DNA of 64,000 nucleotides, taken from Raillietiella orientalis (taxonomy: Eukaryota). Each line of letters opens with the position of its first letter. Position 1 is the stretch's first letter. The position numbers and the translations under genes were made by a program. The stretch is from the NCBI GenBank assembly GCA_036172245.1, contig JAYWIR010000026.1:2852001-2916000 (forward strand). Direction: 5' to 3'. Shown piece after piece: positions 1 to 51,890 of the stretch. The notes under the pieces were generated by a model, which had not been told where the DNA came from, searched no databases, and saw only the letters and a list, made by a program, of their open reading frames with translations.

Positions 1-639
1 CGAGACGATTGCGGGGTGTCGGCTGTACTGGCAATGCGGCATCCGCAACACCTGCGGGGTCGCGTTCTTCGTGAAGCCGGCCATCGACGCTGCCGTGAAG
101 GGCGTGCGCTTCGATGACGACGGTCGGGTCGGTCAGCTGACTCTCGGCTGGTACGACTCGATCGATCTGATCGTCACGAATGTGTACGCCCCAACCGGTC
201 AAAAGGGATACAGCAACCGTACCAGGCTGCTTGAATCCCTGAAGCGCGACTGGCTGGCGAACACGAGCGTGCGGAAGGCTCACCTGATAGCGGGAGATTT
301 CAATCTCCGCCTGCTAACAGGTGAGCCGGAAACACAAGTGAACGCGATGAACGAGTTGTGCGCCGCCATGCGTGCGCGCAACTTGTTCGCAGGTGAGAGG
401 GGAATGGTCCGCAGCATCGACCACGTCTTCCTCGACGCTGACCTGTGTTCACCGGTCGGCAAACGGGGGAGGGTTGCGTCAACGTTCTCGGACCATTCCC
501 GGTTAACTTTTGAGATGCGGCCTCGCGACAAAGGACCGCCATCCAGGGACTGGCGTCTACCCTGGGACTGGACGCGACTCTCAGGTGCGAAGGAACACCT
601 TCGCGAATACCTGAGAGGCGTCACGCTCCGGAATCTCCA
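1..639 (+). mobile_element. Segment A: family-A ORF2 endonuclease domain, interrupted at 639
   Basis: ORF 71-643 with NVYAP, AGDFN, SIDHV and SDH. Homology ends at ...TLRNL, where the 3' end of antisense element B begins. Confidence 0.93.
623..639 (+). repeat. 17-bp target/TSD acgctccggaatctcca (variant 1)
   Basis: Identical to 17343-17359; 15/17 identical to 6171-6187 and 11706-11722. Confidence 0.9.
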
Positions 640-853
640 TTGAAACTTGGGTGCGCCGGGACGTTTATTCTAACGAATAAACTTATACAATCTGTGACTG
701 GACCAGTAGTCCAGCCACGCCCTGGAAAGATATAGCCTGCCGGGCTACCCGTGCGCAGACCGGCGCGGTCGACCTCGGCAGCAGAGGGGAGGGGGAACGA
801 AACAAAAAGAAAAGAAAAAAATCAACAAAAATCAGGGAGGGAGCGGCAAGGGA

Positions 854-3800
854 TCACAGTCTGCTTGGAGGGCCCGTCATCCTCTGGAGGATGCCGACAA
901 GCTGTTTCTGCTTGTGTGGTTCCAGATGGGGCCATCGCGTCGCCATCCTGAGGAAACGGGCAGCATACACGTTGGCATCCCTGTCGCTGGATCCTCCCGT
1001 CGCTTTGCTCCATGCCACGACGATCCCGCGTAGGCAGCACAGGGCTGCAAGCGAGGCCGCTGGAGGCAAGGCGTCACGGACGAAGAGAGGGCGCAAAGCG
1101 TCTCTGGGGTTGCCTCCGTGGATCCCCAGGGATGCGGCAAAGCGTTTCCACAAGGGACGGAGGGCAACACAATCCACTAACAGGTGGGGGAGGTATTCCC
1201 TCTCCCCGCACCTGACACAATTAGGGTTGACACCCCCCCGCGTCCAGTGGTGTCGGCGGGCGTTGCAAGGAAGCCCCCAATGCAACACCATCAGTGCCGA
1301 CTGTTGCCACTTCATGGGGAGGGTGCGCGAGTCCATGAGCACCGGAGGCCACTCGAGATGTTCCTCTGGAACATCCAGTAGCTCTCTTCAGCGCAAAAGT
1401 CCATTTGGGGTGGTCCTCGGGGTCGCAGCGTTGGTGAGCTGACCCGTTCTCCAATCCCCGATCTTCTTTTCCCTGCTGGCGATCTTCACAGTTACCTCCC
1501 ATTGTGCCGCGACGTCGCTGCCCACATGTTCCCGTAGGGTAGGCAGTACCGCAGCAAGGGAGGTTCTTTGTGCCCACGCTCTCCTTCGGGGATTCTCGAT
1601 GATTTCTCGGAGCGTGCGGCGGGCATGCGGCCCGAACAGAGCTATTCGCTCGTGTTGCGGGCTCTGCTCCTGAATCATCGCCCACGTGCGGACGGTTTCC
1701 TGCAACCAGGCAGGACCGTTCGCTGGGCGTACGAGGATCCGCGCCGAGTTGTTCTTCACGAGCTTGGCCGCCCTCCGAAGTTGAAGTCCGCAGTGGCAGA
1801 TGGGGCTTCCGAGTGCAAAGTAGGACGAGAGTCCCGCATTGCCGGTGGCCCGCTCGACGAGGAGACGTGCAGGGAGGCACCAAGGGGTGCACCAATTTCC
1901 TGCCATAAAGGCAACAACTCGGAACTGGAGCTGTAGCTCCAGCCGCTCCAACGTCAGGAGGCCCAGACCACCATCCCGACGAGGAGCGCACAAGTCCGAA
2001 AGACGGACTCGGGGCCTCCCTCTGCCCCAAAGGGCGATCCTCAGGAGGTCCTTCGTCCTCTTCTTTGACTCCGCTGAGGGGGGGCAAACAAAAAGCAAGA
2101 AGCGAAGGAGGGGGGCCGCAAACGCGTTCCACGCCGCGGCCCGTTCCTGCAGGTAGAACCTGCCGTCCTGGAACGGGCCGATCGCCGCCTAAGCCTTCTG
2201 AAGGTAGCCGGACCACGCTTCCGCAGGGGAGTAATCCCCCAACGGCACACCAAGGTACTTGAAGTACCTCACCGTGGGGATCCCCAAACGGACCCAGTCC
2301 TGCTGCCCTGCCCACGCCGCTCCGACTGGCATTACGGACGACTTCGCCCTGTTCACCGTCAGTCCTGTTCCCCGACTCAGCAGGTCGAAGAACTCCTCGA
2401 CCGCCGCAGCCGGGGTGGACATAGGCAGCAGCAGCAGAAGGTCGTCCGGGTACGCCGAAAGCGCAGGCGTACCGGGACAATCGCACGGCAGGTGCGCCAG
2501 AGTCTCCCTGTACGCTCTCAGCACCAATTCGCAATAGGCGCTGAAGAGCAAGGGGCTGAGGCTGTCTCCCTGCCGTATGCCGCGTCGCACCGGTACGCCG
2601 TGCACGGTGGATCCACTAAAAAAAACATTAATAAGCGCGTCGCGCCAGCTGGAACGCAGGTAGGCCAGCAAAGAGGCCGGGAAGCCCAAGCGTTCCAGAA
2701 GCTCCAGCAAGAGATTCTGGTCGACGCTGTCGAATGCTTTACGCAAGTCGACAGCGACCGCAAGGGCTCCCTTCCCCACCCGACCGTTCCGTCTCCCGCC
2801 AACGGACGCACCGGAATTCCGGCTGCTCAATAAGCCCCTTCCTTGTTGGAGCTCTAACCATGTGGAAGCGTGGAGCAGGTTGGCCTCCATGCTTAGCCCG
2901 GGAACAGCATAAGTCTGATCCGGGCTGATGAAGATGTTGGTAACCCGTCCCAGACGCTCTGCACACATCTTGGCTATTAACTTGGCGTCCGCATTCACTG
3001 TTGTGATGGGACGCCAGTTGTTCATGCTCCTTAGGTATCCTTCCTTCGGGAGGAGGCTCACCTTTGCTGAACGAAACGAGGTGGGAACCTCACCTGTCTC
3101 AGGAATCAGCAAGGTGAGTTGCTGTACCAGGGGGGTAAGCTCAGCCGCGAAAGTTTGCTAAAACTCCGCGGGCAGGCCGTCCTCCCCTGTAGCCTTCCGC
3201 CTCTTGAGCTTTCCGATGGCCGAGAGGATCTCGTCCATCGTGAAAGGCTCGTCGAGGCTTCTTTTCTCCTCCTCCCCGATCGCTGGAGCACCTTCCGGAA
3301 GCAGAAGTCGTGAGAAGTCTCGCTCCGGAGGCGCCCTGGCGTACAGGGAGGAGTAAAATTTCCTTACTATCCCGCGTTTCTGAGCGGGAACCGAGTGCTC
3401 CCGGCCCTAGTCGTCCATCAAGCTGGCCGACCCGGATTGCCAGGCTTGCCTCTCGGCTCCCGCTCGATACTCTGCTAACCTGCGCATGTCGGGGGTTCTC
3501 GCGTAACGTCGGGCCTGAAGATAGCACCTTTCGTTACGCGGCCCCTCCCCAAAACTCGCAGGTAGGCGATGCAGGGGGAACTGATCGCAGAACTCCTGGA
3601 CCGACCGCTTGAAGCGGTCCCAGTCCTCAAGTGTCTGCATCCTGAAGCTCCGAATAAACGCGCGGAGGTGCTCCGCCGCGTCGGGAAACTTCAGCCAGTC
3701 CCCTGGCAGACGCCACGCTGACGAGGGGGGGCCCCTGTCGCGCGGACACACTTCGAACATGATCCGACCATGGTCCGACAGCTCGGATGGTACCTTGCCG

Positions 3801-4432
3801 CGCCTGCCCACCCGAGAGCATAGGTGCTGATCAAGGTACACGTGATCGATGCTGCTTTCCATGGCCGTGTCCCCGGCCAACAAGTTGCGCGTGTTCATTT
3901 CTGCGCACAACTCGTTGACGCGGTCGTTCAGTGTATCCGGCGCACCTGAAAGCAGGCGCAGGTTGAAATCACTCGCGATCAGGTGCGCTTTGCGAACTCC
4001 GGCATCGGTCAGCCAATCGCATCTCAGGGCAAGGTAGAATTCGCTTCTTGCCTTCGCATTCAACGCGTTATTTCCGCTAGGAGCGTATAGGTTGGTGACG
4101 ACCAGGTCGATAGAGTCGGACCAGCTGAGAGTCAGCTGACCGACGCGACCTGCGTCATCGAACCGAACGTCCTTTATTGCGGTCTCGATGGCTGGCCGAA
4201 GCAGGAGCGACACCGCTTGATTTCGCATTGCCGCAACGCCACAACAACCGCCCACCCGAGATCCGGTCGATCTCCCGGGCTTGATCTGCGGAGATCACGT
4301 GGATCTCCTGCAGCAGCACAGTCGAGGATGCCAGAGATTGGCGGCCACGTCACGCCTCTTGCCGTCGTCGCTTAGCCCGTTCACGTTCCAACAGGCGATC
4401 AGAAGACGACGCCGAGAGGCGATTCCCGGCAT
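854..4432 (-). pseudogene. Element B ORF2 (APE-RT-zinc finger) with stops and frameshifts
   Basis: Fragments 3407-4255 (APE), 2189-3112 (RT; YADD changed to YPDD), 1388-2098 and 854-1342 (CVRCGERE..HLLVDC). Confidence 0.93.
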
Positions 4433-6088
4433 TATGGCTGGGAAAGTGGCGTCGCGGCACCTGCCGCGGGGCAGGTGTACGAAAGGTCCATCGGTACGAG
4501 GACCATCGGAACGAGGACGGAGGCCTCTTTAGGCGCCTGGGGTACCTGTTCGGCCTCCATCCTCACCATCCCCTGCGTGTCCGAGCGTGGAATTCTCTCG
4601 GGCGACGGGTCCCGGGAGTTTCCCACGCTCATGACACCCTCGCTACCGGAAGCCATCTCTTCCCCTTCGTCGGGGGAGACGATCTTCCGGGGCATTGTGG
4701 ACTTTCGTCCTGCCTTTTTGCGGGGTGACGCAGAGATGGATGCTGTGTTTCCGGCCTTCACCTCGTGTCGGAAGTGGCCGACTCCTGAGGGGAAGCCGGA
4801 CGCCTGACGGCCTTCTTGCCAGCCTTGGGGGCAACCGGCTGCAACGAGGCAGCTGGCTCCTCCGCGGCGCGCTCGAAGGCGACGTCATCGAGCGTAGGCT
4901 CGATGACGGACGCCGCCGCCTCGCTCCCCTCCTTGTTGACTTTGTCAACGGAGGGTTGAGCAGGGGCAGCAGCGAGTTCTTTAGCGCCGCATTCGTCGAT
5001 GGCGGGAATCCGCTCTACAACGACGCAGCAGCTTTTTATTTTATCGCGGCGCAGAGCGGTTTCGCTCAGTTTCGCCAAGTCCTTTCCCTTTTTATGGGAG
5101 TTTTTCTTGGGGTCGACCTTCTGCCACCCTGGCTCTTGACCCTCGCCCTCGACCTTTTCGGCGTGTTTCGCCGAGGTCTTGAGGCTGGCCTTCGCCTTGG
5201 TGGCGGAGGTGACCTCCTTAGGAGCAGCACGAGCTGCCAGCTTTTTTCTCTTTTTTGCCGCGCGCTTTCTCGCGTTTTCCGCAGACACGACGCGGACTGT
5301 GTTTTGGGGGCACACCAGACGGGTGTGCCCCGCTTGTTTGCATTGCTGGCACTGCACGCTCGGACACCTCATTTTAAGGTGACCAAAGCTGCTGCAGCAG
5401 CCGCAAAACTTGGGTTTCCCGACGTACCACACGTAAACGGATTCACCGTTGACGGTAAGTTTGTGAGAAACTCACATCCCTCGCAAACCGTCACTCGCGC
5501 TGCACCCAAGCCGCCAAGCACCCCGTCGTAATCGACAAAAGGAGTAGGCTTTCCCCACAGCGCGTGGACAGTTGCAAACTTTTCTAATTCGTTCCGGACG
5601 GCCTCCTTCGTCATCCGGAACGTGATACCGGTCAGGTGAACGATCACCGACCGGTCTTCAGTAATGGGGAGAAGCCTCCGGCTGCCCATAATTACGGGGG
5701 TTCGCAGAAGTCTCTGCGCAAAAGTTGCTTCCTTGCAGATAACTTCCACAAATTGACCCCCGCTTCTGACGGACATAGGCAGAAGCTCCTCTTTTTGTAC
5801 ACCCAGAACGCGCATCGCCTGAGAAAAGGCGCGCGCGTTCTCGGGAGAATATGAACCACCTACCTTATATAGAAGGGGTGGGTTATACCCCTCCTCCAGG
5901 TAAGCGCGCATTTCCGCCATAGCCGCTGGCGTAGGTGCCGCAGCCACGGCGTTCCAAGCCCTGAGTAGGGCCAAGGGCGCATCCATGCTGGCGGGAGCCT
6001 CCACTGATGCGGGAGCCCCCACCTCCATCTCCTCCGGGGGTAATGAGGTCATCGCCCCCGGATCCTCACCGGTGGTGGTATCAGGCAT
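4432..6088 (-). pseudogene. Element B ORF1 (gag-like, two CCHC knuckles), frameshifted
   Basis: MPDTTTGEDP start; knuckles CGCCSSFGHLKMRC and CQQCKQAGHTRLVC; split into three ORFs; stop TAA overlaps the ORF2 ATG (TAATG). Confidence 0.9.
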
Positions 6089-6170
6089 TGCTGCCGAATC
6101 CTCCACCCACACCACGCACAAGCACCAACGGAAATGAAACTCAGGAGCAACGAAAAGACACGTCCGCTCG

Positions 6171-6187
6171 ACGCTCCGCAGTCTCCA
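6171..6187 (+). repeat. 17-bp target/TSD acgctccgcagtctcca (variant 2) between tandem B and C
   Basis: Exact match to 11706-11722. Confidence 0.9.
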
Positions 6188-6400
6188 TTGAAACCCGGGT
6201 GCGCCGGGACGTTTATTCTAACGAATAAACTTATACAATCTGTGACTGGACCAGTAGTCCAGCCACGCCCTGGAAAGATATAGCCTGCCGGGCTACCGGT
6301 GCGCAGACCGGCGCGGTCGACCTCGGCAGCAGAGGGGAGGAGGACCGAAACAAAAAGAAAACAAAAAATAAACAAAAATCAGGGAGGGAGCGGGAAGGGA

Positions 6401-9400
6401 TCACAGTCTGCTGGGAGGGTCCGTCATCCTCTGGAGGATGCCGACAAGCTGTTTCTGCTTGTGTGGTTCCAGATGGGGCCATCGCGTCGCCATCCTGAGG
6501 AAACGGGCGGCATACACGTTGGCATCCCTGTCGCTGGATCCTCCCGTCGCTGTGCTCCATGCCACGACGATCCCGCGTAGGCAGCACAGGGCTGCAAGCG
6601 AGGCCGCTGGAGGCAGGGCGTCACGGACGAAGAGGGGGCGCAAAGCGTCTCTGGGGTTGCCTCCGGGGATCCCCAGGGCTGCGGCAAAGCGTTTCCACAA
6701 GGGACGGAGGGCAACACAATCCACTAACAGGTGGGGGAGGTATTCCCTCTCCCCGCACCTGACACAATTAGGGTTGACACCCCCCCGCGTCCAGTGGTGT
6801 CGGCGGGCGTTGCACGGAAGCCCCCAATGCAACACCATCAGTGCCGACTGTTGCCACTTCATGGGGAGGGTGCGCGAGTCCATGAGCACCGGAGGCCACT
6901 CGAGATGTTCCTCTGGAACATCCAGTAGCTCTCCCCAGCGCAAAAGTTCATTTGGGGTGGTCCTCGGAGTCGCAGCGTTGGTGAGCTGACCCGTTCTCCA
7001 ATCCCCGATGTTCTTTGCCCTGCTGGCGATCTTGACAGTAACCTCCCATTGTGCCGCGACGTCGCTGCCCAGATGTTCCCGTAGGGTAGGCAGTACCGCA
7101 GCAAGGGAGGTTCTTTGTGCCCACGCTCTCCTTCGGGGATTCTCGATGATTTCTCGGAGCGTGCGGCGGGCATGCGGCCCGAACAGAGCTATTCGCTCGT
7201 GTTGCGAGCTCTGCTCCTGAATCATCGCCCACGTGCGGACGGTTTCCTGCAACCAGGCAGGACCGTTCGCGGGGCGTACGAGGATCCGCGCCGAGTTGTT
7301 CTTCACGAGCGTGGCCGCCCTCCGAAGTTGAAGTCCGCAGTGGCAGATGGGGCTTCGGAGTGCAAAGTAGGACGAGAGTCCCGCATTGCCGGTGGCCCGC
7401 TCGACGAGGAGACGTGCAGGGAGGCACCAAGGGGTTCACCAATTTCCTGCCATAAACGCAACAACTCGGAACTGGAGCTGTAGCTCCAGCCGCTCCAACG
7501 TCAGGAGGCCCAGACCACCATCCCGACGAGGAGCGCACAAGTCCGAAAGACGGACTCGGGGCCTCCCTCTGCACCAAAGGGCGATCCTCAGGAGGTCCTT
7601 CGTCCTCTTCTTTGAATCCGCTCAGAAGTAGCAAACAAAATGCAAGGGGCGAAGGAGGGGTGCCGTAAGCGCGTTCCACGCCGCGACCCGTTCCTGCAGG
7701 TAGAACCTGCCGTCCTGGAACGGGCCGATCGCCGCCTGAGCCTTCTGAAGGCAGCCGGACCACGCTTCCGCACGGGAGTAGTCCCCCAACGGCACACCAA
7801 GGTACTTGAAGTACCTCACCGTGGGGATCCCCAAACGGACCCAGTCCTGCTGCCCTGCCCACGCCGCTCCGACTGGCATTACGGACGACTTCGCCCTGTT
7901 CACCGTCAGTCCTGTTCCACGACTCAGCAGGTCGAAGAAGTCCTCGACCGCCGAGGCCGGAGTGGACATAGGCAGCAGCAGCAGAAGATCGTCCGCGTAC
8001 GCCGAAACCGCAGGCGTACCGGGGCAATCGCACGGCAGGTGCGCAAGAGTCTCCCTGTACGCTCTCAGCACCAATTCGAAAAGGCGCTAAAGAGCAGGGG
8101 GCTCAGGCTGTCTCCCTGCCGTATGCCGCGTCGCACCGGTACTCCGTGCACGGTTTGCCCGCTGAAAAGAACATTAATGAGCGCGTCGCGCCAGCTGGAG
8201 CGCAGGTAGGCCAACAAAGAGGCCGGGAAGCTCAAGCGTTCCAGAAGCTCAAGCAGGAGATTCTGGTCGACGCTGTCGAATGCTTTACGCAAGTCGACAG
8301 CGACCGCAAGGGCTCCCTTCCCCACCCAACCGTTCCGTCTCCCGCCAACGGACGCACCGGAATTCCGGCTGCTCAATAAGCCCCTTCCTTGTTGTAGCTC
8401 TAACCATGTGGAAGCGTGGAACAGGTTCGCGTCCATGCTCCGCCCGGGAACAGCATAAGTCTGTTCCGGGCTGAAGAAGATGTTGGCGACCCGTCCCAGG
8501 CGCTCTGCCCACATCTTGGCTATCAACTTGGCGTCCGCATTCACTATTGTGATGGGACGCCAGTTGTTCATGCTCCTTAGGTCTCCTCCGTTCGGGAGGA
8601 GCCGCACCTTTGCTGAACGAAACGAGGTGGGAACGTCACCTGTTTCACGGATCAGCAAGGTGAGCTGATGTACCAGGGGAGTAAGCTCAGCCGGGAAAGT
8701 TTGGTAAAACTCCGCGGGCAGGCCGTCCTCCCCTGGAGCCTTCCGCCTCTTGAGCTTTCCGATGGCCGAGAGGATCTCGTCCAGCGTGAAAGGCTCGTCG
8801 ATGCTTCTTTTCTCCTCCTCCCCGATCTCTAGAGCACCTTTTGGAAGCAGAAGTCGTAAGACGTCTCGCTCCAAAGGCGCCCTGGCGTACAGGGAGGAGT
8901 AAAATTTTCCTACTATCCCGCGTTTCTGAGCGGGAACCGAGTGCTCCCGGCCCTGGTCGTCCAGCAAGCTGGCCGATCCGGATTGCCAGGCTTGCCTCTC
9001 GGCTCCCGCTCGGTACTCTGCTAACCTGCGCATGTCGGGGGTTCTCGCGTAACGTCGGGCCTGAAGATAGCACCTTTCGTTACGCGGCCCCTCCCCAAAA
9101 CCTGCAGGTAGGCGATGCAGGGGGAACTGATCGCAGAACTCCTGGACCGACCGCTTGAAGCGGTCCCAGTCCTGAAGTGTCTGCATCCTGAAGCTTCGAA
9201 TAAACGCGCGGAGGTGCTCCGCCGCGTCGGGAAACTTCAGCCAGTCCCCTGGCAGACGCCACGCTGACGAGGGGGGGCCCTTGTCGCGCGGACGCACTTC
9301 GAACATGATCCGACCATGGTCCGACAGCTCGAATGGTACCTTGCCGCGCCTGCCCACCCGAGAGCATAGGTGCTGATCAAGGTACACGTGATCGATGCTG

Positions 9401-9981
9401 CTTTCCATGGCCGTGTCCCCGGCCAACAAGTTGCGCGTGGTCATTTCTGCGCACAACTCGTTGACGCGGTCGTTCAGTGTATCCGGCGCACCTGAAAGCA
9501 GGCGCAGGTTGAAATCACCTGCGATCAGGTGCGCTTTGCGAACTCCTGCATCGGTCAGCCAATCGCGTCTCAGGGCAAGGTAGAATTCCCTTCTTGCCTT
9601 CGCCCTCAACGCGTTATTTCCGCTAGGAGCGTATAGGTTGGTGACGACCAGGTCGATAGAGTCGGACCAGCTGAGAGTCAGCTGACCGACGCGACCTGCG
9701 TCATCGAACCGAACGTCATTTATTGCGGTCTCGATGGCTGGCCGAAGCAGGAAGGCGACACCGCTTGATTTCGCGGTGCCGCAACGCCACAACAGCCGCC
9801 CACCCGAGATCCGTTCGATCTCCCGGGCTTGATCTGCGGAGATCACGTGGATCTCCTGCAGCAGCACCAGGTCGAAGGATGCCAGGGTGGCGGCCACGTC
9901 ACGCCTCTTGCCGTCGTCGCTTAGCCCGTTCACGTTCCAACAGGCGATCAGAAGACGACGGCGAGAGGCGATTCCCGGCAT
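6401..9981 (-). pseudogene. Element C ORF2 (APE-RT-zinc finger), few disablements
   Basis: 638-aa ORF 8065-9981 (ACWNVNG, LQEIH, GDFN, SDH, KAFD, QGDSLSP); frameshifts near 8080 and 7625; stop near 7436. Confidence 0.93.
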
Positions 9982-11623
9982 TATGGCTGGGAAAGTGGCG
10001 TCGCGACACCTGCCGCGGGGCAGGTGTAGGAAAGGTCCATCGGTACGAGGACGGAGGCCTCTTCAGACGCCTAGGGTACCTGTTCGGCCTCCATCCTCAC
10101 CATCTTCTCCGTGTCGGAGCGTGGAATTCACCCGGGCGACGGGTCCCGGGAGTTTCCCACGCTCATGGCACCCTCGCTACCGGAAGGCATCTCTTCCCCT
10201 TCGTCGGGGGAGACGATCTTCCGGGGCATTGTAGACTTCCGTCCTGCCTTTTTGCGGGGTGCCGCGGAGATGGATGCTGTGTTTCCTGCTTTCACCTCGG
10301 CGTCAGAAGTGGCCGACTCCTGAGGGGAAGCCGAACGCCTGACGGCCTTCTTGCCAGCCTTGGGGCAACCGGCTGCAGCGAGGCAGCCAGCTCCTCCGCG
10401 GCGCGCTCGAAGGCGACGTCATCGAGCGTGGGCTCCATGACGGACGCCGCCGCCGCGCTCCCCTCCATGTTGACTTTGTCAACGGAGGGTTGAGCAGGGG
10501 CAGCAGCGAGTTCTTTAGCGCCGCATTCGTCGATGGCGGGAATCCGCTCTACAACGACGCAGCAGCTTTTTATTTTATCGCGGCGCAGAGCGGTTTCGCT
10601 CAGTTTCGCCAAGTCCTTTCCCTTTTTATGGGAGTTTTTCTTGGGGTCGACCTTCTGCCACCCTGGCTCTTGACCCTCGCCCTCGACCTTTTCGGCGTGT
10701 TTCGCCGAGGTCTTAAGGCTGGCCTTCGCCTTGGTGGCGGAGGTGACCTCCTTAGGAGCAGCACGAGCTGCCAGCTTTTTTCTCTTTTTTGCCGCGCGCT
10801 TTCTCGCGTTTTTCGCGGACACGACGCGGACGGTGTTTTGGGGGCACACCAGACGGGTGTGCCCCGCTTGTTTGCATTGCTGGCACTGCACGCTCGGACA
10901 CCTCATTTTAAGGTGACCAAAGCTGCTGCAGCAGCCGCAAAACTTGGGTTTCCCGACGTACCACACGTCAACGGATTCACCGTTGACGGTAACTTTGTGG
11001 GGAAACTCACATTCCTCGCAAACCGTCACTCGCGCTGCACCCAAGCCGCCAAGCACCCTGTCGTAATCGACAAAAGGAGTAGGCTTTCCCCACAGCGCGT
11101 GGACAGTTGCAAACTTTTCTAATTCGTTCCGGACGGCCTCCTTCGTCATCCGGAACGTGATACCGGTCAGGTGAACGATCACCGACCGGTCTTCAGTAAT
11201 GGGGAGAAGCCTCAGGCTGCCCATAATTACGGGGGTTCGCAGAAGTCTCTGCGCAAAAGTTGCCTCCTTGCAGATAGCTTCCACAAATTGACCCTTGCTT
11301 CTGACGGACATAGCCAGAAGCTCCTCTTTTTGTACACCGAGAACGCGCATCGCCTGCGAAAAGGCGCGCGCGTTCTCGGGAGAATATGAACCACCTACCT
11401 TATATAGAAGGGGTGGGTTATACCCCTCCTCCAGGTAAGCGCGCATTTCCGCCATAGCCGCTGGCGTAGGTGCCGCAGCCACGGCGTTCCAAGCCCTGGG
11501 TAGGGCCGGGGGCGCATCCGTGCTGGCGGGAGCCTCCAGTGATGCGGGAGCTCCCACCTCCATCTGCTTCAAGGGCAATGAGGTCATCGTTCCCGGATCC
11601 TCACCGGTGGTGGTATCAGGCAT
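9981..11623 (-). pseudogene. Element C ORF1, frameshifted in its 3' part
   Basis: 443-aa ORF 10292-11623 with two CCHC knuckles; TAATG overlap at 9979-9983. Confidence 0.9.
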
Positions 11624-11687
11624 TTCTGCCTAATCCTCCACCCACACCACGCAAGAGCACCAACGGAAATGGAACTCAGGAGCAACG

Positions 11688-11729
11688 AAAAGGCACGTCC
11701 GCTCGACGCTCCGCAGTCTCCAAGACTGG
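11688..11729 (-). promoter_or_regulatory. Putative Inr + DPE core promoter spanning the C/target junction
   Basis: CCAGTCT (A at 11727, in the host sequence) and GGACG at 11700-11696, i.e. +28 to +32. The GACGT motif recurs at the 5' ends of B, E, G, J, L and M. Function is inferred. Confidence 0.5.
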
Positions 11730-14700: not shown

Positions 14701-14732
14701 TAAACGCCCCGGGCGTACCCGGGTGGCAACCT
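11706..14732 (+). mobile_element. Segment D: 3' half of a family-A element (linker-RT-zinc finger-3' UTR)
   Basis: Resumes ORF2 as TLRSLQDWDLFK straight after C; RT in ORF 12577-13971 (DLHKAFD, YADD); finger in 14074-14514; AATAAA 14699-14704 and terminal hairpin. Confidence 0.94.
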
Positions 14733-20300: not shown

Positions 20301-20367
20301 GGGCCTTGTACCGCGGATGTAGAGTTTTTTAAAAATAAACGCCCCGGGCGTACCCTGGTGTAAACCT
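17343..20367 (+). mobile_element. Segment F: 3' half of a family-A element, disabled ORF2
   Basis: Begins with the 17-bp target (17343-17359); RT in ORF 18096-19208; finger in 19638-20153; AATAAA 20334-20339 and the same terminal hairpin as D. Confidence 0.94.
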
Positions 20368-20380
20368 CCAAGGCCAGTTG

Positions 20381-27130: not shown

Positions 27131-27310
27131 GCCGAGTCGGTGAACTTGCTCCGCGGCTCGAAGTATTGTGCGCTTGACAACTTAATCAGTTCATTGTGCT
27201 CGTGTGTGCCCGGAAAGGGGAAGTTTTCCAGAAGAAACAAAAAAAGAAGCGGCGAGGAGATCGCGGCAAAAGACCTGCAGTGGTCCCGTGCAGCAAGACC
27301 AGCTGCCAGG

Positions 27311-29127: not shown

Positions 29128-29140
29128 GTCTTCCCCTTTT

Positions 29141-32650: not shown

Positions 32651-32787
32651 AAAGCAGAACTCTAGTGCAACCCAAGGACCCCCAAGTGCAAAATGTTTGT
32701 ATTGAGTGAATGAGAGTGCGAATGTAAATTTTGTATTTTTATAGAAAAATGAACTTACCCCACCCCTTGTGGGACTTGGGGAAACCT

Positions 32788-34147
32788 GCCGAGTCGGCGA
32801 TGGGGCGACTGCATGCAGCGTGCTTTTGCTCGTCGCGACGCTGCTTTTTACGGCTTTCGTAGCCTTTGCAGTGGGGCCTGCGCTGCAGTGGGGCTGTCCG
32901 GAACTCCGAAGGGACAACGGAACGGCGCAAGAAGTCTTCGCACTGTTGCGATCTTCCTGTTTTCCTACCTTTCCCTCCAGGGTGTTACGGATATTTCCTG
33001 GTTCCAGGCTCGGAAAGGTGCCTGCGAGTTCGGCAGAGAGGGAAGGCACGGCACGCGTCAAACCCTCGCGCCCCTTTTTAATTGGCTTCCCCGCCGTGAC
33101 TTTTCCCTTTCGGGGCGTTGCGGGCGGGGATGCTTTCTTTTTATCCGCCGATCGCTCGTGGTTTTTTTCGAGTGTTTGCGGACGACGTTTTTTATTTGCC
33201 GCTGCTGCTTTTCGTGCAGTGGTCTCTTGAACCCGACGAATTTCCGCTGCGGCTCTTTTTCTTGCAAGTACCGGGCACTTTTTGATTTCGTGCCAGGAAT
33301 CTTTGCAATAGCGGCATCTTGGAGAGGGGCACTCTTTAATTCGGTGCCCCTCCTTGCCGCACTGCTCGCACGCGCGAGTCTGGCCTATGAACCACAGGTG
33401 AACGACCGTGCCGTTCACCTGCAGCTGCTCAGGAACAACACGCCTGTTCGCGACGGTGATCCGCGCGGAGGCTTGTCCAATGTGGACAGAGGGGAAATCC
33501 TTAAGAGGATTTGGCCTCCTCCACAGAGCGTGCACGGTGGCGAACTTCGCCAGCACACTTACGACATCGCGGTCGGAGATTTCCGGTTCGATGTCGCACA
33601 ATTGAACGACAAAAGAGTCGTCAATCGCGGTAGGTAGGACTTCCTTGCCATTGATGGTTAACGGCGTACGGAGAAGGCGCTGCACAAGTGCTGCGTTCTT
33701 GCACCGAATCTTTGTATATTCCATCCTGCCAGCAGGCATTATGGCAAGGAGTTCCTCCTCGCGAACGCCGATACGGACGAGCTCATCATTGAGATCACGA
33801 CCGATTCTCCCGTTGAGGGGTCCACTGACCTTATAACGGAGTGCAGGCATGTATCCTGATGACACATATGCCTGGAACTCCGCATCGCAGGGTCCTGGTC
33901 TTTGGGAGGTAACGGCGGCGTAACTCCGCACCGGGGGCGAAGAAACCATTACGGAGGATGCGGCCACTTCAAGTGCAGCTGAAGTGCATCCAGTGGCTTG
34001 CTCCTCCACACTATCCTGTGTACTGGCCATGTTGCACTATGCTACTTGGCAGATTGCACAGTAACACACAAGTGCGAGCAAAAACGCAGGCACAAAGTTG
34101 CCCGATCGTTGGCGCGGATAGACGCGGAAACACGTCTGCACTGTACG
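32788..34147 (-). mobile_element. Segment J: 5' end and ORF1 of another family, cut by H/I
   Basis: ORF from 34030 with CEQCGKEGHRIKEC and CRYCKDSWHEIKKC; 5' AGACGTGTTT motif at 34128-34137. Confidence 0.9.
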
Positions 34148-37478: not shown

Positions 37479-37494
37479 TCTACTGCCTTGCGTG

Positions 37495-43057: not shown

Positions 43058-46000
43058 TCGAATGCTTCATGCAAATGTGCTGCTACTACCAAGGCTCCCG
43101 GCCTTTCTCCCGTCCGTCCTTACTGGAGCCCGCTGTCGGCAGAAGGTCTAGCCGCGGTTGGGCTGTCCGTCGCATCTCGCTCTTGCAGCTGCCACCAGGT
43201 GCGCGCCAAAAGAAGGTTCGCATCCATGGGTCTACCTGATGCAGATTAAGACTGCAATGGGCTCACTACGGACTCCGCGACTTGCCCTAGGCGCGTGTCC
43301 CACAGCTTCGAAAACAACTTGACGTCCGTATTCACTAACCTGATCGGACGCCAGTTGTTGAGATGGCGCATATCTCTTCCTTTTGGAAGGAAACGCTCCC
43401 TTGCTGAGCGGAAGGAAGAAGGGACATTGCCCGTCACCCTAATCAACGTTGAGAGTCTGAGCACCAGTGGGGCGAGTTCCGCAGCGAAGCTGTGATAGAA
43501 CTCCGCGGGCAGCCCGTCCTCACCTGCCGTCTTGCGTTTCTTCAGTCCTGCGATGGGCGAAGAAACTTCCTCCAACGAGAAGGGCTCGTCGAGACGGGCG
43601 CGTTCCTCCTCGCTGATGACGTGTGCACCCCGCTGCAGGAGCAGTTCCTAGAGGATCCTCTCCGCGGGGGATTTGGCGTAGAGCAAGAAGTGACGCTTCA
43701 TTGTTTGCCGTACTTCGGCAGGAGCCGTGCATTCATTGCCTGGTTCGTTGAGCAGAATAGCCGCTCCAGACTGCCAGACCTGGCGCTCGGCCCTCGCCTT
43801 GTACTCTGCGAGGTGCCGAACTTGCGCACGTCTAGAAAAGGTGCGCGCCTGCAGAAATTCTCTGCTATTGGCCACGCCTTTTCCAAAGCCGCGCGGTAGG
43901 AGGTGCAGGGGTACCGGTCGCAAAACTCGCGAACCGATCTTTTAAGATGTTCTCATTCTGCGAGCTGCCGGATGGCAATGCCGCGAAGGAACTGACGAAG
44001 ATGCTTCGCCGCCTCCGGATGACTAAGTCAATCCGCCGGCATCCTCCAAACATTGTTCGCAGGTCCTTTGCCTGGCGGGAGTAGCTCGAACTCCAGCCTA
44101 TCATGGTTCGATAAGATGGAGAGCACCCTGCCTCTCCTTCCCATTCGTGCGAGTAGGTGTTCATCGAGGTAGAGGTGATCCACGCACCTTTCCAGTCCAG
44201 GCTCGCCGGCTTCCAAGTTATGCGCGTGCACCGACGCGAATGCCTCTTCCACCTGCGACCGTTCCGCCAGGGACCTCGTCTCGTTGGAAAGCAGGTGGAC
44301 GTTGAAGTCCTCTGCGACGAGATGTGCCACTCTGGCTCCGGAGTTCCTAAACCACTGGCTCTCAAGCACATCGAAGAACTCGATTCTTTCGGCGCGCCGA
44401 TGAAAGCCGCTCGGCGCGTAGACGTTCGTCAGGACGAGGTCGATTGAATCTGACCACTTGAGTACAAGTTGGCGTATTCGCCCTTCCTGGTTGAATCGAA
44501 CGCTGCGCACCGCTCCTGCCATCCTACTATTAACGAGAAACCCGACTCCGCACGATTGTGCAAAACCTTATCGCCAGTACAGGCTGCCACCCGCGCACTG
44601 TACAATTTCGGCAACCTCCCCGTCGGAGATGTGATGCATCTCCTGAAGGATCGCCAAGTCGAAATGTCGCAGGGTGTCTGACCCGCCGCTCCTCTTTCCG
44701 TCCTTGCGCAGCCCGTTGACGTTCCAACATGCTACGCTGAACCGACGAAGAGAGGCGACTTCCTGCATTAAGGCTGGGAAGGTGAGCACAGGTTTCTTGC
44801 CTTGTCCGGCGAGTGGTCACGAGACAGAACGGCAGAGTTTGGAGAGGGGACATCTCCATTCGAAGCCGCCCTGCCTGTTGCCGGTAGCTCAGAGGTGAGG
44901 TTCATCCTCTCCTCTTTGCTCCCCGGCAAAAGATCCTCTTCGGCGACCACGCGCTTGCGGGTCTTCGGAAGGCGATTGCGCGGTTTCGGGCGAGTTTCGC
45001 GCTGTGTGCTCATTCTGTCGGACTCTGGATCAGAATCCGACAGTGGAGCGCTTGCCAGGCGCTGCTTCTGTTTTCCGGAATTGGGGAAATCATTTGATGC
45101 CTGTTTCTTAGCGCTTTCTGCTACTGCGGCTGGGACTTTCGCCCTTTTAGCCGCAGTAGCAGCTTCCGCTCCATTCGCGATGGGAAGACTGCACAGGAGG
45201 AAAGGATCGCAATCTTTTTTGGGGATGGTTTCGCGTGTTTCTTTCGCCCGCTCACCTCCACACAGAGCTGCGAGGACCTTAACCGTTTCTTTTTAATTAC
45301 CTTTCTAACCTGCATTCAGCCGTCTTCCTTCGCGTCGCAGTTATCTTTGCCCTCCTGAGATGGCGCTGCGTCCGCAGATGTAAGAAACGCCGCCTTGGCT
45401 GCCTCTTGAAGTGCTGCCTCCGCGCAGGCGTAAGCGCCTCCCTTAGCGATCACGAGAGGCGCTGCCTCTTTCAGATCGGAGGATCCGCGCGTTGCCTTTG
45501 CGACCGCTGGGGGTACTGCTGTAGCGGTTGTGCTCGCCCTAGCAGTTTCTTCCTTGGCCGCAGTAGGCGCTGCGTCCGCGCGCGAGGGCTGCGGGTTTGC
45601 CGGCTGTTTCGTCGCGGCACTCGGCGCCTGGGGCACCTTGGCCGCGGTAGGCTTAGCCGGCACGGAGTTCTTTGCCCGCGGGCGCGTTTTTCCCGTATCG
45701 GGCGAACGACCGCATTCCTCGCCACTTGCCGAGGCCTTGATAGGAGGCTTTGCGGTCGCGATGTTGTCAGTAGGAGGCTTCTTGCCTTTCGGCGCACTCT
45801 CTCCTGCTTTGAAGTATTCGCTGCGAGTCTCGGTGAAAGTTCGCATTCTTCGCTAGCTTCCGTCGGCTCTGTAGCCTCAGGCTTCGCCGCGACGAGTTTT
45901 TCTATGTTTTTCTCCCATTTTTTGTGGAGGGGAGGAAGAGTTTTCTGCGCATGCGCGCTCGCGCTTTTCGCAACGCTCTCCGAAGTTTTGAGGTTTTTTT

Positions 46001-46923
46001 ACCTCGATTCGCGGCGTTTATTTCGCGGTGCGAAACGCGCTTCGTTCTTTCGCTTTTCGGTTTTAAAAGGAGCTCCGGGCACGTTTCTTTTGTGTGCCCG
46101 GGCTCGTGGCAATAACAACAAGCAGCCGACGGACACTTCTAAGGCGGTGACCCTTCTGCCCGCATTTCGCGCACACAAGCGTTTGCCCCGCAAACCACAG
46201 GCGGACAGTCATTCCATCCACCTGCAGTCTTGTGGGCATTGCCCGGCGATCCGCCATCGTCACTCGCACTTGCGCGAGCCCGCTGTGATGGTCTTCGAAA
46301 CCCTCAGCAGGGTTTGACAACTTCCAAAGCGCGTGAACGGAGGCGAATTTTTCAAGGGCCTCCACGACCTGGCGGTCCGAAAGGCCCTTGCTCACTCCAC
46401 TCAGCCGGACAACGGACGATTGATCCGCAGTGGTGGGGAGTATTTCCTGCCCACGAATGAGCAGCGGCGTGTGCAGCAAACGCTGCGTAAGGAGAGCGTC
46501 CTTACTGGACACCTCCCAGTAGCCGCACCCACTCATGGGCATGATGGACACCAGTTGGCCTTTTTGAACTCCAATCCGTTGGAGTTCCTGGCCAAACTCG
46601 CGCCCAACCCGCTCAGGCATAAGGACACTTAACTTATACCTGAGTGCAGGCGTGTAGCCATTTGCTACATACGCCTGCAGCTCAGGACTGTCGGGCGAAG
46701 GTCCCATTGTAGCCGCGAGGGCAGCGACCTGGGCGAACGTCCTCGCCGTCCGCGAGGACAGTGGCTCCTTGCTAGCAGCCGAAACCGCCATCTCAGTTGC
46801 AGGTACCGTTTCCTTCTTGCGGCTGATGTTCCTCTTTGCTCTCATTGCAGCACAGAAGCACAGCAGAACAAGAACACACAAGAGTCAGCCTACCGCGGAA
46901 CGACGCAAAAGCACGTCCGTATG
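43058..46923 (-). mobile_element. Segment M: 5' part (ORF1, APE, RT N-terminus) of a J-like family, cut at RT motif A by L
   Basis: ORF1 from ~46845 (AYVANGYTPALRYK, CAKCGQKGH); TAATG at 44766-44770; VACWNVNG and NNWRPI; ends at AHLHEAFD; 5' GGACGTGCTTTT at 46907-46918. Confidence 0.9.
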
Positions 46924-48832
46924 CGACCGGCGCTAATGCGGGAAAAGGGAGATGTTCCCGCTTCCTTCCGCTCAACGAGAGTGCGGGTCCTGCCGAAAGA
47001 CGGGGATTTGCGCCAACTCAACAAGTGACGTCTGGTCACATTGGTAAATTCGGACATCAAGTTGTTCTGGAAACTATGGAACGCGTGGCAGGGCAGAATC
47101 GCCGAGTCCTAGGTAAGTACGGAGCAGACGTATGCTGTTCCGGGGCGGTCCATGGACGCGAATCTCTTCTTCACGCGAAAATGGTTCAAGTTGCAGCAGC
47201 GCGTGGCGCAGCAGAGCCTGGCAGCCGAAAGCGCCGCTGCCAAAGGTAAGCGGCGGGGCTGAAGGCACAATGGAATGCCGGGGGCCTTAGCGGTCGCCGT
47301 CGATCTCTTCAAAGCGTTCGACAAAGTAAACCAGGACTTCCTTCTGGAGCTTCTGAGACGCCTAGACCTCCCGACGCAGCTCATCGCCTAATTGCGCTCC
47401 AGCTGGCACCATGCTTTATGCTGTATCTCTTTTAGCAGGCGCCACGTGTACGGCCTTCCCATACGGTGGGGTATCAGGCAGAGAGACAGCTTAAGCCCCA
47501 GCTCTTCAGCATCTTCTTTGAGTTGGTGCTGAGGGCGTACAGGCTGACGCTGGCCAACTTGTTGAGCTCCTGCCCGGGAACTGCGGCCGTGGCTGCCTAT
47601 GCTGACGACCTTCTCCTGCAGCAGCAGGAGCATGTCAACCCTGGCGTCCAGGCTTGAAGACTCCTTCGAGCTCATTTATCGGGTAGCGGGTCTGAGCGTG
47701 AAGAGGACGAAATCAACCGTTGTACCGGTTAGCTCTTTGTGGGAGGGGCGGTCCGACTGCATCCTCCTGGGGAACCCCACAGGTAGGTGCTTTAAGTATC
47801 TTGGCTTTCCCTTAAGGGCCTTCTGTCCAGCCTAAGCGTGTTCGGACTTTCTTCACAAGACCGAGACTGCTCTGGGACGGATTCCAAGGCTGCAGGTTCT
47901 TCCTGCAGAAACCAGACTTTGCGTGGAACGTTTTCGTTTCCATCCTCCTCCGTTTCTTCTTTTTTGTTTTTTCCACGCCTTAGTCGGCTAAGCGTCTGGC
48001 GAAATGCCTGTTGCTATTCGCCTTGTGGGAACCGGTGAACTCCAGGATCCACCACAAGGACTTGGCGGCTTTTCAGCAGGATGCATGATTGGGATCGCTT
48101 TGGCGCTCTTGCGGATCGAACAGCTAGAGCTGTTCCCCATGCTGCGCCCAGCTCTGGATTGGTGCGCTTAAACGCAGCTGCGGCTGCGGCGCTACATGGG
48201 TGGCAACGGACATCGTTCGTTTTACCTGCGCACGGAGCGCTTCTAGAGAGGATTCGGCTTCCCTCTGAAGCAGCTCGCCTCGCTTCTGGGAACGCATTTG
48301 TGATCTTCTGCCAGCCGACGAACCTCAACGCCTGGAGGCAGGAAGCTTTATTGTCCTAACCAGCGCAACAGGATGTGTCCCGTTTGAAACACCGCTGCGT
48401 GAACCTTTCTCCATACTGTCAATTGAGGGAGGTGTTGAAAGACCAGGACCAGTGGACATGCCTAGCCGCTACGTTTCTCGCCGAAGCACTTTCTGCACTG
48501 ATGGTGCAAGACGACATTGACCTACCGGCGAAGTGGGAGGTCGCTTGCAGTATCGCATGCGAAATTCGACTTCTGGGTGGCTGGAGGACTTGCGAGCTGG
48601 CAGACGCTGCCACGCCTCGCCTTTGTGCCAAGGGACTTCTCAGGTAGAGGGAGCTCCTCGGAGTGCCCGCCGAAGAACTTGTGGTCCCTTCTGCGTCCTT
48701 GGACGCGACTGTCTTCCCCCTTCGGTGAAAACAGGACGCTTTTCTGCTGTAGCATTGGGGTCTGTACTGCAACCAGCGCGCGCACTTGGTTTACGTTGGA
48801 GTTGCGTCCCCGAATTGTGCAACATGCGGAGT
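46924..48832 (+). mobile_element. Segment N: degraded RT-to-finger portion of ORF2
   Basis: LMREKGDVPASF, AVDLFKAFD, YADD, FKYLG and PNCATCG across several frames. Confidence 0.85.
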
Positions 48833-48834
48833 AC

Positions 48835-49329
48835 CGAATGCCAAGGTACTTGATGTTCTCGCCCGCGGGTATCCCCAACCGGTTCCAGTTCGACCATCAT
48901 GCCCGCGACGAGTCCGATGAAACAATCGACGACTTTGCTCAGTTTACCTCGAGACATGTCCCACGGTGCAGCAACTCGAAGAAATCCTCAAGCGCCCATA
49001 CCGGGGTGGACCCTTGAAGCAGGGGCAGAAGGTCGTCGGCATAGGTCGACACGGCAAGCGTACCGGAACACGAGCTCGGCAGGGTTGCCAAAGTTTCCCT
49101 GTATGCTCTCAGCGCCAACTCAATGTAGATGCTGAAGAGCAGGGAGCTGAGCCTGTCACCCTGCCGAATGACGCGACGCACCGGCACTCCGCACACGTGC
49201 CGGCCGCTGAAATTGATATTTATAAATGCGAAGCGCCAGCAGGAGCGCAGGTAGGCCAGGAAGACGGCCGGAAATCCCGTGCTTTCCAAGCGCTTGAGGA
49301 GGAGATCTTGTTCGACGCAGTCGAAGGCA
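48835..49329 (-). mobile_element. Segment P: RT fragment (AFD to KYLG)
   Basis: ORF 48939-49289 with RQGDRLSS and YADD. Confidence 0.85.
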
Positions 49330-50712
49330 TGGGATACGGCAGAGAGACAGCCTGAGCCCCTTGCTCTTCAGTATCTACTCCGAGTTGGTACTGAGAGAGT
49401 ACAGGGAAACTCTGGCGCACCTGCCGCACGACTGTGCCTCTATGCCAGCGGCTTCAGCGTATGCAGACGACCTTCTTCTGCTGCTCCCTATGACCAGCCC
49501 GGCTTCGGCATTCGAGGAGTTCTTCGATTTGCTGAATTGGGGAACCGGACTTACGGTGAAAAGGGTGAAGTCGTCCGTGATGCCAGTTGGTGCGGCGTGG
49601 GAAGGGCAGTAGGACTGAGTTCGTTTAAGGATCTCAACGGTGAGGTACTTCAAGTACCTTGGTGTGCCGTTGGGGGACTACTCCCCTGCGGAAGCGTGGT
49701 TCGGCTGCCTCCAGAAAGTAGAGACGGCGATTGGCCTGTTCCGAGGAGTCAGGTTTTTCCTGCCTGTACGGGCCGCGGTTTGGAACACGTTCGCTGCTCC
49801 TCTCCTCCGTAACCTGCTTTTTGTTTGCCCCCCCCACAGAAAGAATGAAAAAGCGGACGAAGGACCTCCTCCGTATCGCCCTTTAGGGCAACAGGAGGGC
49901 CCGTGTCCGCTTGAAGGGCTTGTGCACTCCGCGTCGGAACGGCGGTCTCGTCCACCTGACATTGGAGAGGCAGGAGCTTCAGCTCCAGTTCCGGATGTTG
50001 GCCGTTGTGCCGGAGCTGTGGTGCACCCGCTCGTGCGTCCCTGCACGTCTCCTCGTCAAGGAAGCCACCGGGAAGACGGGACTCACGTCCTTTCTTTCAA
50101 TCCAAGGCTCCCGCATCAACCGATGTGGGCTACATCTGCGGAGGGTGGCTGCCTTGGTTCGAAAAAATCAAGGATGGATCACCTGCCGCCCCGCGAACGG
50201 TAGTGCCTGGTTGCAGTAAACCGTTCGCACGTGGGCACAGTGCGGTATACAAGGCGCTCAACAGAAACGACGGTTCCTGTTTTGGAGTTGCAGAAATTAC
50301 ACGCTCCGTGAGATCCTGGAGGATCCGAAGAAGCGATCGAAAAGGGAGAACCCCGGTCAGAGAGAACCCTTCTCGCTGCTGCGCTGGCCTCCCTAATAGA
50401 TCAGGACAGCGATGTTGGGGCGAAGTGGGGGGTTAATGTAACCATCTCCAGAAAGGAGAAGAAGCAGCGAGAGTCAAAGACGGGCAAGTTAACAGATGTT
50501 TCGACCCCGAGTACGCCTCCCCATGGACTTCTGCGCTGGAACGCGCTACTCGATGTTCCTATTGAACATGTGAAGTGACCCCCGGTGCTCAAGAACATTT
50601 CCACCCTCCCCTTGAAATGTAGGGTGTCGGCTCTACTGTTGCAGTACTGGGTACTCCCCTGCAACGCCCGCCGTTACTACTGTATCTGGGGAGCGGTAAA
50701 CCCTAATTGTGT
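49330..50712 (+). mobile_element. Segment Q: 5'-truncated family-L RT fragment
   Basis: Starts at GIRQRDSLSP; closely similar to the K and L 3' halves; stops at PNCV. Confidence 0.88.
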
Positions 50713-50719
50713 GACTTGG

Positions 50720-50988
50720 ACGGTCCGTCCTCCCCTGGCGCCTTGCGCCTCTTGAGCCTCTTAATCCCGGCTATAATTTCGCTGGTCGTTAAGGGCTCGT
50801 TCAGGTTTTCCTTCTCTTCCTCCTTTATGGTCGAGTGTCCATCCTCAAGGACGTGCTGCGAGACGTCCCATTGCGTGGGTATCCTGGCGTGAAGTGAGAA
50901 ATAAAATCTTTGCACAAGGTGCCGTATCCCCGCTGCGGCCGCTGGTCCGTTTACCTTGTCGTCCAGCAGGCTGTCCGACGCAGACTGC
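50720..50988 (-). mobile_element. Segment R: family-A-like EN-RT linker fragment
   Basis: SLLDD...IRHLVQRFY...EPLTTSEIIAGIKRLKRRKAPGEDG. Confidence 0.82.
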
Positions 50989-51180
50989 AGGGCTGAACAT
51001 TCAGCGTACAGGGTCGCCGGTTACAAGCCTTTGCTTGTATATATGGTAGGCTTTTTATGTCACGGGAAGACTGAAACTTCCTTTACATGGTCCTTGCATT
51101 CAATGAACATTCGTAAGCTAGATCTGGACTGTCTCTCTATTCTCAGTGAAGCTGAGCATTCTAGGGAGTTTGACTGACTT
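50987..51180 (+). mobile_element. Segment S: short ORF1 relic resembling G
   Basis: AYRVAGYKPLLVYMVGFL...LDCLSILS aligns with G AYKASGNKPSLVYQVGNL...LDGLSALS. Confidence 0.75.
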
Positions 51181-51706: not shown

Positions 51707-51843
51707 AATCATGGACGCTGGAGGAGCAACGCGTTCTGGAGCACGCGCTTAAGAGGTTTCCCCCTTCGGTGCCCGCCCGCTGGGTGCGAATAGCCGAGTG
51801 CCTCCCGCACCGCAGCGTCAACGAGTGCATCCAGCGGTACAAG
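51707..51843 (+). CDS. DNAJC2: DNAJC2/ZRF1/MPP11-like second SANT domain, penultimate exon
   Basis: TTTCAG acceptor; WTLEEQRVLEHALKRFPPSVPARWVRIAECLPHRSVNECIQRYK; GTGAG donor at 51844. Confidence 0.85.
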
Positions 51844-51890
51844 GTGAGAAAACGGGAAAGAGGAAAGATATCCTCACACTTGCGGGCGCG

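Follow-up and report, generated by a model that had tools for sequence, protein, structure and literature searches.

A 64,000-nucleotide (nt) stretch of the genome of Raillietiella orientalis (assembly GCA_036172245.1, contig JAYWIR010000026.1, positions 2,852,001 to 2,916,000 of the forward strand), referred to here as the window, carries from its first nucleotide to position ~51,000 an island made up only of retrotransposons that lack long terminal repeats (non-LTR elements), or long interspersed nuclear elements (LINEs), which encode an apurinic/apyrimidinic endonuclease (APE) and a reverse transcriptase (RT). Within this island, elements of different LINE families lie inside the coding sequences of one another, in antisense orientation at every nested insertion that is defined by a true element terminus, and two of the host sites have each been used twice by independent events. 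The observed feature is real and well above chance, and the locus is most likely a variant of the target-specific L1/Tx1-type LINEs. The analysis covers this single locus, on one contig of one assembly.

The map of the island (Table 1) is based on self-BLAST, on tblastn and tblastx comparisons with reference copies and on the reading of every joint. It comprises 19 segments belonging to ~10 families, and no other class of transposable element (TE) was found there. Positions common to several families are given as A2-coordinates, counted along A2, an element of family A, and the family groups were defined by identity matrices from a joint alignment. Group A (A1 to A4) is 93-98% identical, group B (B and B′) ~79% and group X (X1 and X2) 92%, while the members of group C (C1, C2 and H) are 78-87% identical among themselves and 67-89% identical to A, depending on the region. 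D, F, G and I are singletons with 47-73% identity to anything else, and Y and E are not comparable with most of the copies.

True termini meet the interior of another element at eight joints, and at all eight the host belongs to a different family and lies on the opposite strand. They define seven nested insertions (A in B, B in A3, A3 in B′, X in Y, Y in A4, C in D and D in F), every one of which is antisense (7/7; binomial test on nested insertions, 0.008); the proportion becomes 8/8 (0.004) when the insertion of H in G is added. Each nested insertion interrupts an open reading frame (ORF) of its host. The original prediction had listed nine terminus-to-interior joints, each with a host of a different family on the opposite strand and with a broken host ORF. 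Joints were found within a few bases of eight of these positions (9 and 11 bases away at 32788 and 11706, respectively), and what it said of host family, strand and ORF interruption is confirmed for all of them. The ninth position, 49330, proved not to be a terminus, as the interior of G on the minus strand there meets the 5′-truncated H on the plus strand; this joint is still an opposite-strand one and falls in the same host site as 43058.

The 3′ termini lack poly(A) and consist of AATAAA, a 4-5-bp hairpin conserved in position (the stem in X having a different sequence) and a short A-rich tail. A full 5′ end is kept in 8 of the 11 elements whose 5′ side is visible (A1, A2, A3, C2, D, E, X2 and Y), the exceptions being X1, C1 and H. 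In A, C, E, D and Y, though not in X, a GGACGTG(T/C)(T/C)TT block stands at a distance of 6-25 nt from the 5′ end, as a candidate internal promoter or initiator; it is seen at the 5′ ends at 11716, 6181, 17350, ~37500, 20390, 46915 and 34135.

The original prediction also held that the families use fixed targets. This is borne out at two host sites, each used twice by independent events, and its extension to the other five of the seven sites, seen once each, is weighed below. The first site, targeted by family A, corresponds to A2-coordinate ~2546-2550 of the B group, antisense of the ‘QDWD.FK’ linker codons that follow the endonuclease, and is filled in both B and B′. In B, A1 and A2 together form 11,077 bp between two copies of TCTCCA, a 6-bp target-site duplication, and taking away one of these copies makes the two parts of B exactly colinear with other families. 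A1, A2 and A3 are pairwise 96.4-96.7% identical with 39-45 private changes each, the A copies forming a star, and the hosts B and B′ are 78.7% identical. The 5′ joints in the two hosts also differ: A2 retains its full leader, with TGGAGA joined to CTGCGG, and A3 merges with its host inside a common CGGAGCGT. Duplication of a unit containing both host and insert is therefore excluded for the A sites, because the A copies are ~96.5% alike against 78.7% for their hosts and because the 5′ joints are different. A search of the whole window for the 17-mer of the A target, with up to 3 mismatches allowed, returned four matches against 0.23 expected, and all four lie at A termini.

The second site, antisense of the RT motif ‘KAFD’, was used twice by the C group, by the 3′ end of C2 in D and by the 5′-truncated H against G. 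The host sequences of D and G at this site overlap by up to 9 nt, which corresponds to an implied duplication. C2 and H are 78-83% identical, and I, probably the partner of G, shares 53% identity with D. Two other origins of these joints were tried and rejected: twin priming for the inverted joint of G and H, as the two are only ~66-73% identical in their overlap, and a decayed duplicate of the C2 and D pair for H and I, as I is 53% identical to D.

Insertions of A into B and of B into A are both present, and the nesting order, B′ and then A3, B and finally A1/A2, places the activity of the two families in the same period. Families A and C are 70-80% identical and have different target sites. 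At the homologous place in each family's own ORF2 the family's own target is missing, in a sample too small for this to be called self-avoidance.

The original prediction described the same-strand joins as head-to-tail tandems separated by a short target-like spacer, and this arrangement is seen at all four terminus-to-terminus tandems, A2/A1 (6182-6187), B′/E (20367/8), X1/X2 (27128-27140) and C1/C2 (~37479). When the first 10 nt beyond the 3′ end were compared between nested and tandem copies in the four families that have both, 8, 6, 7 and 10 positions matched, levels that 246, 4466, 788 and 2, respectively, of 300,000 random 10-mers from the window reached; for X, the likeness may arise because the common 13 nt are simply the element's own end. 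The partners are 85% identical for C1/C2 and 92% for X1/X2, and A1 is no nearer to A2 than to A3, which argues that the tandems arose by insertion and not by duplication.

Judged by their protein sequences, the elements are APE-type non-LTR retrotransposons of the L1 group (L1/Tx1-like), with the Tx1 clade as a possible placement. X2 is the sole copy in which both the ORF1 frame and ORF2 are open. Its ORF2 matches the Pfam domains Exo_endo_phos (5e-18) and RVT_1 (2e-33), both of which are also found in A2, and the closest solved structure to ORF2 is human LINE-1 ORF2p (8e-53, against 2e-26 for R2), in agreement with the relationship originally proposed between these LINE families. Similarity to known proteins is low throughout. 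The best of 1.84 billion representative proteins are only 28-34% identical to these families, and a word-based protein search gave at most ~30% identity; the named matches come from fish and frog (24-28% identity), with plant L1-like proteins scoring only slightly lower. Among metagenomes, relatives of the A ORF2 occur at 21 loci, all with identities of ~36% or less over short segments, and none is a copy of these families. Two or three CX2CX4HX4C knuckles can be read in the ORF1 translations of A, E, X and Y, with Pfam zf-CCHC scores of 20.1, 16.2 and 14.4 bits, each under the 20.8 cut-off; ORF1 gave no match to an RRM (RNA recognition motif) in Pfam and no relative in the PDB. In the Ala/Pro/Val-rich N-terminal part of the X ORF1 there are 27-nt tandem repeats whose number differs between X1 (21822-21888, 2.5 copies) and X2 (27436-27639, up to 6.4). 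A 676-aa open frame at 20515-22545 (+) runs from the ORF1 of E into that of X1, an in-frame fusion with two complete ORF1 cores of the putative RRM/knuckle type.

In base composition the island is distinct from its surroundings, with a GC content of 0.52-0.61 over 1-50 kb against 0.40-0.51 in the remaining 13 kb and of ~60% for the island overall; the elements lie 10-15 GC points above the flank. For CpG the observed/expected ratio lies at 0.96-0.99 within the elements and at 0.90 for host DNA; CpG is not depleted, and nothing suggests decay through CpG methylation. Decay driven by CpG or resembling repeat-induced point mutation was ruled out, since this ratio is near 1 and the spectrum of changes is only mildly transition-biased.

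The island was probably built by repeated sequence-specific target-primed reverse transcription, with at least seven L1/Tx1-like families active over overlapping periods. Each family would prime its cDNA at a nick in a particular short sequence within the ORF1 or ORF2 of another family, on what we infer to be the sense strand, and it is because of this choice of strand that the newcomer would lie antisense and split the host ORF. The 3′ joint is precise, and joining of the 5′ end would rely on the homology of the leader, the first 10-17 nt of the element, to the target sequence immediately downstream of the nick; leader and target agree at 15 of 20 nt for A, 11 of 20 for B/E and 7 of the first 10 for C. 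Joining would leave a short duplication, represented by the 6 bp seen in family A and an implied ~9 bp in family C. Its upstream copy, together with the target-like leader, would rebuild a usable site, so that a second copy of the same family would land head-to-tail with the duplication sandwiched between the two. Finally, two large target-site deletions, one where the 5′-truncated X1 meets E and one where C1, likewise 5′-truncated, meets A4, would have removed the left halves of the hosts.

A number of observations weigh against this mechanism. The evidence comes from a single locus in one assembly. B in A, Y in A, D in F, X in Y and I in J make up five of the seven sites, and each of them occurs a single time. 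Both flanks are visible for just one insertion, that of A1-A2 in B, and the window has eight further KAFD sites that stand empty. Five joints were found beyond those of the original prediction: two same-strand interior joints, between E and X1 at ~21650 (in frame) and between A4 and C1 at 35183/4 (with ~320 nt missing), and three opposite-strand interior joints at 48836/7, 50712/3 and ~50990, which are not termini. Altogether, six interior-to-interior joints call for deletions, and the left halves of the hosts Y, A4, D and F are absent, which needs two large deletions, at ~21650 and 35183. F and H, although they belong to different families, both end in the C-terminal CX2C (zf-RVT-like) region, at points no more than 22 nt apart (48815-48836 and 50700-50712), and each is then followed by the interior of a minus-strand element, which the mechanism does not account for. 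The folding energy of the 3′ hairpin is no better than that of shuffled sequences (z -0.4 to -2.3), so that the hairpin is commended by its conserved position and not by its stability. Lastly, a decayed, low-GC 3′ fragment of a related LINE stands alone in host DNA, itself of low GC, at 54,033 to ~54,720 (+), covering A2-coordinates ~4831-5409 and ending in a degenerate AATAAACG. Its flanks matched no reference element in a single tblastx scan (E 1e-3, high-scoring segment pairs of at least 20 aa), in which an origin of these flanks from decayed LINEs was not examined. Not every copy, therefore, need sit in another LINE, and old copies may lie outside LINE hosts.

The nearest alternative keeps the same insertion mechanism and places the specificity in RNA: the leader, together with 3′ read-through from the flanks of the source copy, would pair with the nicked target, so that a family would inherit the site of its source copy and retargeting between LINE hosts would be easy. 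Such a process would fit the resemblance of the leaders to the target downstream of the nick, the position of the A3/B′ joint inside 8 common nt, the different sites of A and C at 70-80% identity and the existence of three nick contexts that have no common consensus. The likeness of the leaders, however, is equally expected from a fossil of the duplication or from mere help in 5′ joining, and the target choice of Tx1 and R1 is ascribed mainly to the endonuclease in one published account (PMC4494074). The data from the window do not separate RNA-set from endonuclease-set targeting, and we regard RNA-borne specificity as unlikely.

Segmental or tandem duplication could have multiplied a few chance joints, with gene conversion keeping the A copies alike. 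Clustered repeats do undergo unequal exchange, and the alignment of 9097-14732 to 14734-20367 shows a direct repeat of 5.6 kb, 87% identical overall. The two halves of this repeat nevertheless differ in their divergence, at 96.5% identity for A and 78.7% for B, and the distinct 5′ joints and the private changes of the A copies tell against a common copying event. At the second site, C2 and H are 78-83% identical and sit in hosts from unrelated families, and tandem partners at 85-92% are not near-identical. This explanation is already disfavoured, and we consider it very improbable. An ordinary transposon graveyard or heterochromatic nest, in which site and orientation would be random and the pattern a chance effect of a small sample, has even less to recommend it. 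Nested TE islands are common, five of the sites are singletons and several of the joints are irregular, all of which such a nest would accommodate; it would not readily yield two sites re-used at nucleotide level within elements of ~5.5 kb, an antisense orientation in 7/7 or 8/8 cases (p ~0.004-0.008), the A target 17-mer at A termini in 4/4 cases, mostly full-length 5′ ends and an island with no other TE class. Least credible of all is that the joints are assembly chimeras among similar repeats, since, even if four A copies ~96% alike occur within 35 kb, the joints coincide with true element termini, a 6-bp duplication frames one insertion, across which the host is exactly colinear, and mis-joins would be expected in same-strand homologous sequence and not at opposite-strand termini.

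Site-specific insertion by precise target-primed reverse transcription, the reading preferred here, has relatives among known elements. The rDNA- and telomere-specific LINEs R1, R2, TRAS and SART likewise have precise 3′ joints, many full-length copies and homology between element ends and target; what they target, however, is multicopy genes or repeats of the host and not other LINEs. In Cryptococcus, the L1-like element Cnl1 nests in its own copies, as a single family at subtelomeres. Zepp has a poly(A) tail, and the elements of the island have none. Tx1-clade families are described that insert into Mariner, Harbinger and LTR elements with their positions and orientations fixed, including Tx1-Mar in Mariner-N4_AMi, Tx1-9_AMi in Harbinger, and Tx1-8_Crp and Tx1-4_AMi in LTR retrotransposons, and Tx1L of Xenopus targets Tx1D; the crocodilian Tx1-Mar and SINEU-3 form tandems that sandwich the target-site duplication through sequential insertion (PMC4494074). 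The present elements share with Tx1 the insertion of APE-type LINEs at a fixed position and in a fixed orientation inside another mobile element, different targets for close families, sequence-specific insertion and tandem copies formed around the target-site duplication by sequential insertion. They differ from it in their targets, which are the coding sequences of other autonomous LINEs from families within one group, in the reciprocity of targeting, with A going into B and B into A, and in that all seven or eight insertions are antisense, while Tx1-Mar has one antisense and one sense hot spot (PMC4494074).

Zepp has a GC content of 61% in a genome of 53%, forms clusters of 1.5-42 kb by insertion into existing copies, and occurs in some green algae as one Zepp-like island per chromosome, according to two studies (PMC3446292, PMC8226300). 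The island is similar to Zepp and Zepp-like L1 clusters as a GC-rich, LINE-only array of nested and tandem L1-type elements with a local GC peak, here of ~60% against 40-49%. In contrast to Zepp, which targets its own family and is mostly represented by 5′-truncated 3′ ends, ~10 families are here the targets of each other, and the copies are mostly full-length, antisense and inserted at defined nucleotides. The locus is not of the Zepp type, because all nested hosts are of a different family and 8 of the 11 elements keep their full 5′ end. The present case resembles target-specific Tx1 elements in its probable mechanism and Zepp clusters in its appearance. The original prediction knew of no described multi-family reciprocal antisense case, and the literature search found no description of reciprocal or always-antisense cross-family LINE-into-LINE targeting; the supplementary figures of PMC4494074, which hold further Tx1 targets that could include LINEs, lay outside this search.

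Target-specific LINEs are natural models for programmable, RNA-templated gene insertion and for the ways in which selfish elements spare their host. Close relatives with distinct and well-defined targets offer a compact natural experiment on target change in APE-type LINEs, and autonomous LINE families that target each other would clearly exemplify the parasitism of transposons on transposons. The mutual hyperparasitism or safe-haven role suggested in the original prediction is an interpretation of the arrangement. An antisense rule without exception, if true, needs a mechanism, for which strand choice at transcribed targets and selection via double-stranded RNA are candidates. A wider proposal, possible though doubtful in our judgement, is a closed LINE-in-LINE ecosystem of co-active lineages that would live only in each other, nick the sense strand and be obligately antisense. 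Target choice would be inherited through leader and trailer RNA derived from the flanks, with swaps of host, and the antisense rule would follow from a mechanism common to the lineages, for instance if transcribed LINE DNA were attacked on its displaced sense strand. Islands of this kind would be the only LINE habitat permitted in the genome, possibly centromeric or small-RNA-producing; they could mark centromeres if they occur once per chromosome, as in Zepp clusters.

Table 1. Segments of the LINE island and its terminus-to-interior joints (positions in the window; TSD, target-site duplication; UTR, untranslated region)
Feature	Position	Strand	Description
B left part	1..639	+	Host element, endonuclease part of ORF2 as far as the A target site; TCTCCA at 634-639 is one TSD copy
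A1	640..6181	-	Full-length family A, from 5′ leader to AATAAA-hairpin-TTTCAA; ORFs broken
Spacer A2/A1	6182..6187	-	6 nt, TGGAGA on the element strand, same as the TSD
A2	6188..11716	-	Full-length family A, 96.1% identical to A1
B right part	11717..14733	+	To the 3′ end (AATAAA, hairpin, GGCAA); second TSD copy TCTCCA at 11717-11722; 3′ boundary ambiguous by ~4 nt
A3	14734..17350	-	5′ 2.6 kb of family A, cut at A2-coordinate 2626 by the B 3′ end
A3 5′ joint to B′	17343-17350	-	Within the common 8 nt ACGCTCCG
B′ right part	17351..20367	+	Another member of the B group, 78.7% identity to B; starts at the A target site, as in B, and runs through the 3′ end
E	20368..21650 (right edge ~)	+	5′ leader, 5′ UTR and most of ORF1; head-to-tail after B′; probably of the B group
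X1	21651..27127	+	Family X, 5′-truncated by ~120-160 nt; in-frame, same-strand joint to E ORF1
X1/X2 interval	27128..27140	+	13 nt CCTGCCGAGTCGG, identical to the 13 nt after X2 at 32785-32797; either a target copy or the 3′ terminus of X itself
X2	27141..32784	+	Full-length family X; open ORF1 frame 27071-28564; open ORF2 28976-32650, 1224 aa
Y	32798..34147	-	5′ end and most of ORF1; ORF1 cut by the X2 3′ end
A4	34148..35183	+	Family A fragment, A2-coordinates 1894-2929, 96% identical to A2; adjoined by the Y 5′ end in the endonuclease coding region
C1	35184..37478	+	C group, A2-coordinate 3249 to the 3′ end; same-strand joint to A4, ~320 nt missing
C2	37479..43057	+	Full-length C group, 85% identical to C1, head-to-tail after C1; homologues of the A site and B site both intact
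D	43058..46924	-	Separate family, 5′ end to A2-coordinate ~3456; cut by the C2 3′ end at the antisense of the RT ‘KAFD’ codons
F	46925..48836	+	Separate family, A2-coordinates ~3059-4971; D 5′ end at left edge, interior joint at right edge
G	48837..49329	-	Separate family, A2-coordinates 3930 to 3440; edge at the KAFD site meets 5′-truncated H
H	49331..50712	+	C group, 82-87% identity to C1; both ends truncated, covering A2-coordinates 3596-4961
I	50713..51005 (right edge ~)	-	Fragment, A2-coordinates 3001 to 2720; closest to the B group (66-69%), 53% to D; may come from one element with G
J	50990..51177	+	Low-GC fragment of an ORF1 N-terminus, island edge
Joint	639/640	opposite	A1 3′ end against B interior
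Joint	11716/11717	opposite	A2 5′ end against B interior
Joint	~14733	opposite	B 3′ end against A3 interior
Joint	17343-17350	opposite	A3 5′ end against B′ interior
Joint	32784-32797	opposite	X2 3′ end against Y interior
Joint	34147/34148	opposite	Y 5′ end against A4 interior
Joint	43057/43058	opposite	C2 3′ end against D interior
Joint	46924/46925	opposite	D 5′ end against F interior

The right flank contains host genes, which start within 1 kb of the island. An MSH2-like exon encoding MutS domain V lies at 51891-52625 (-), spans 244 aa with no introns and is ~50-54% identical to its counterparts in many animal phyla alike; it reads DGFRLAW where its relatives have DGFGLAW. Convergent with it is a Myb/SANT-like exon at ~51708-51900 (+), which is preceded by a canonical intron end.

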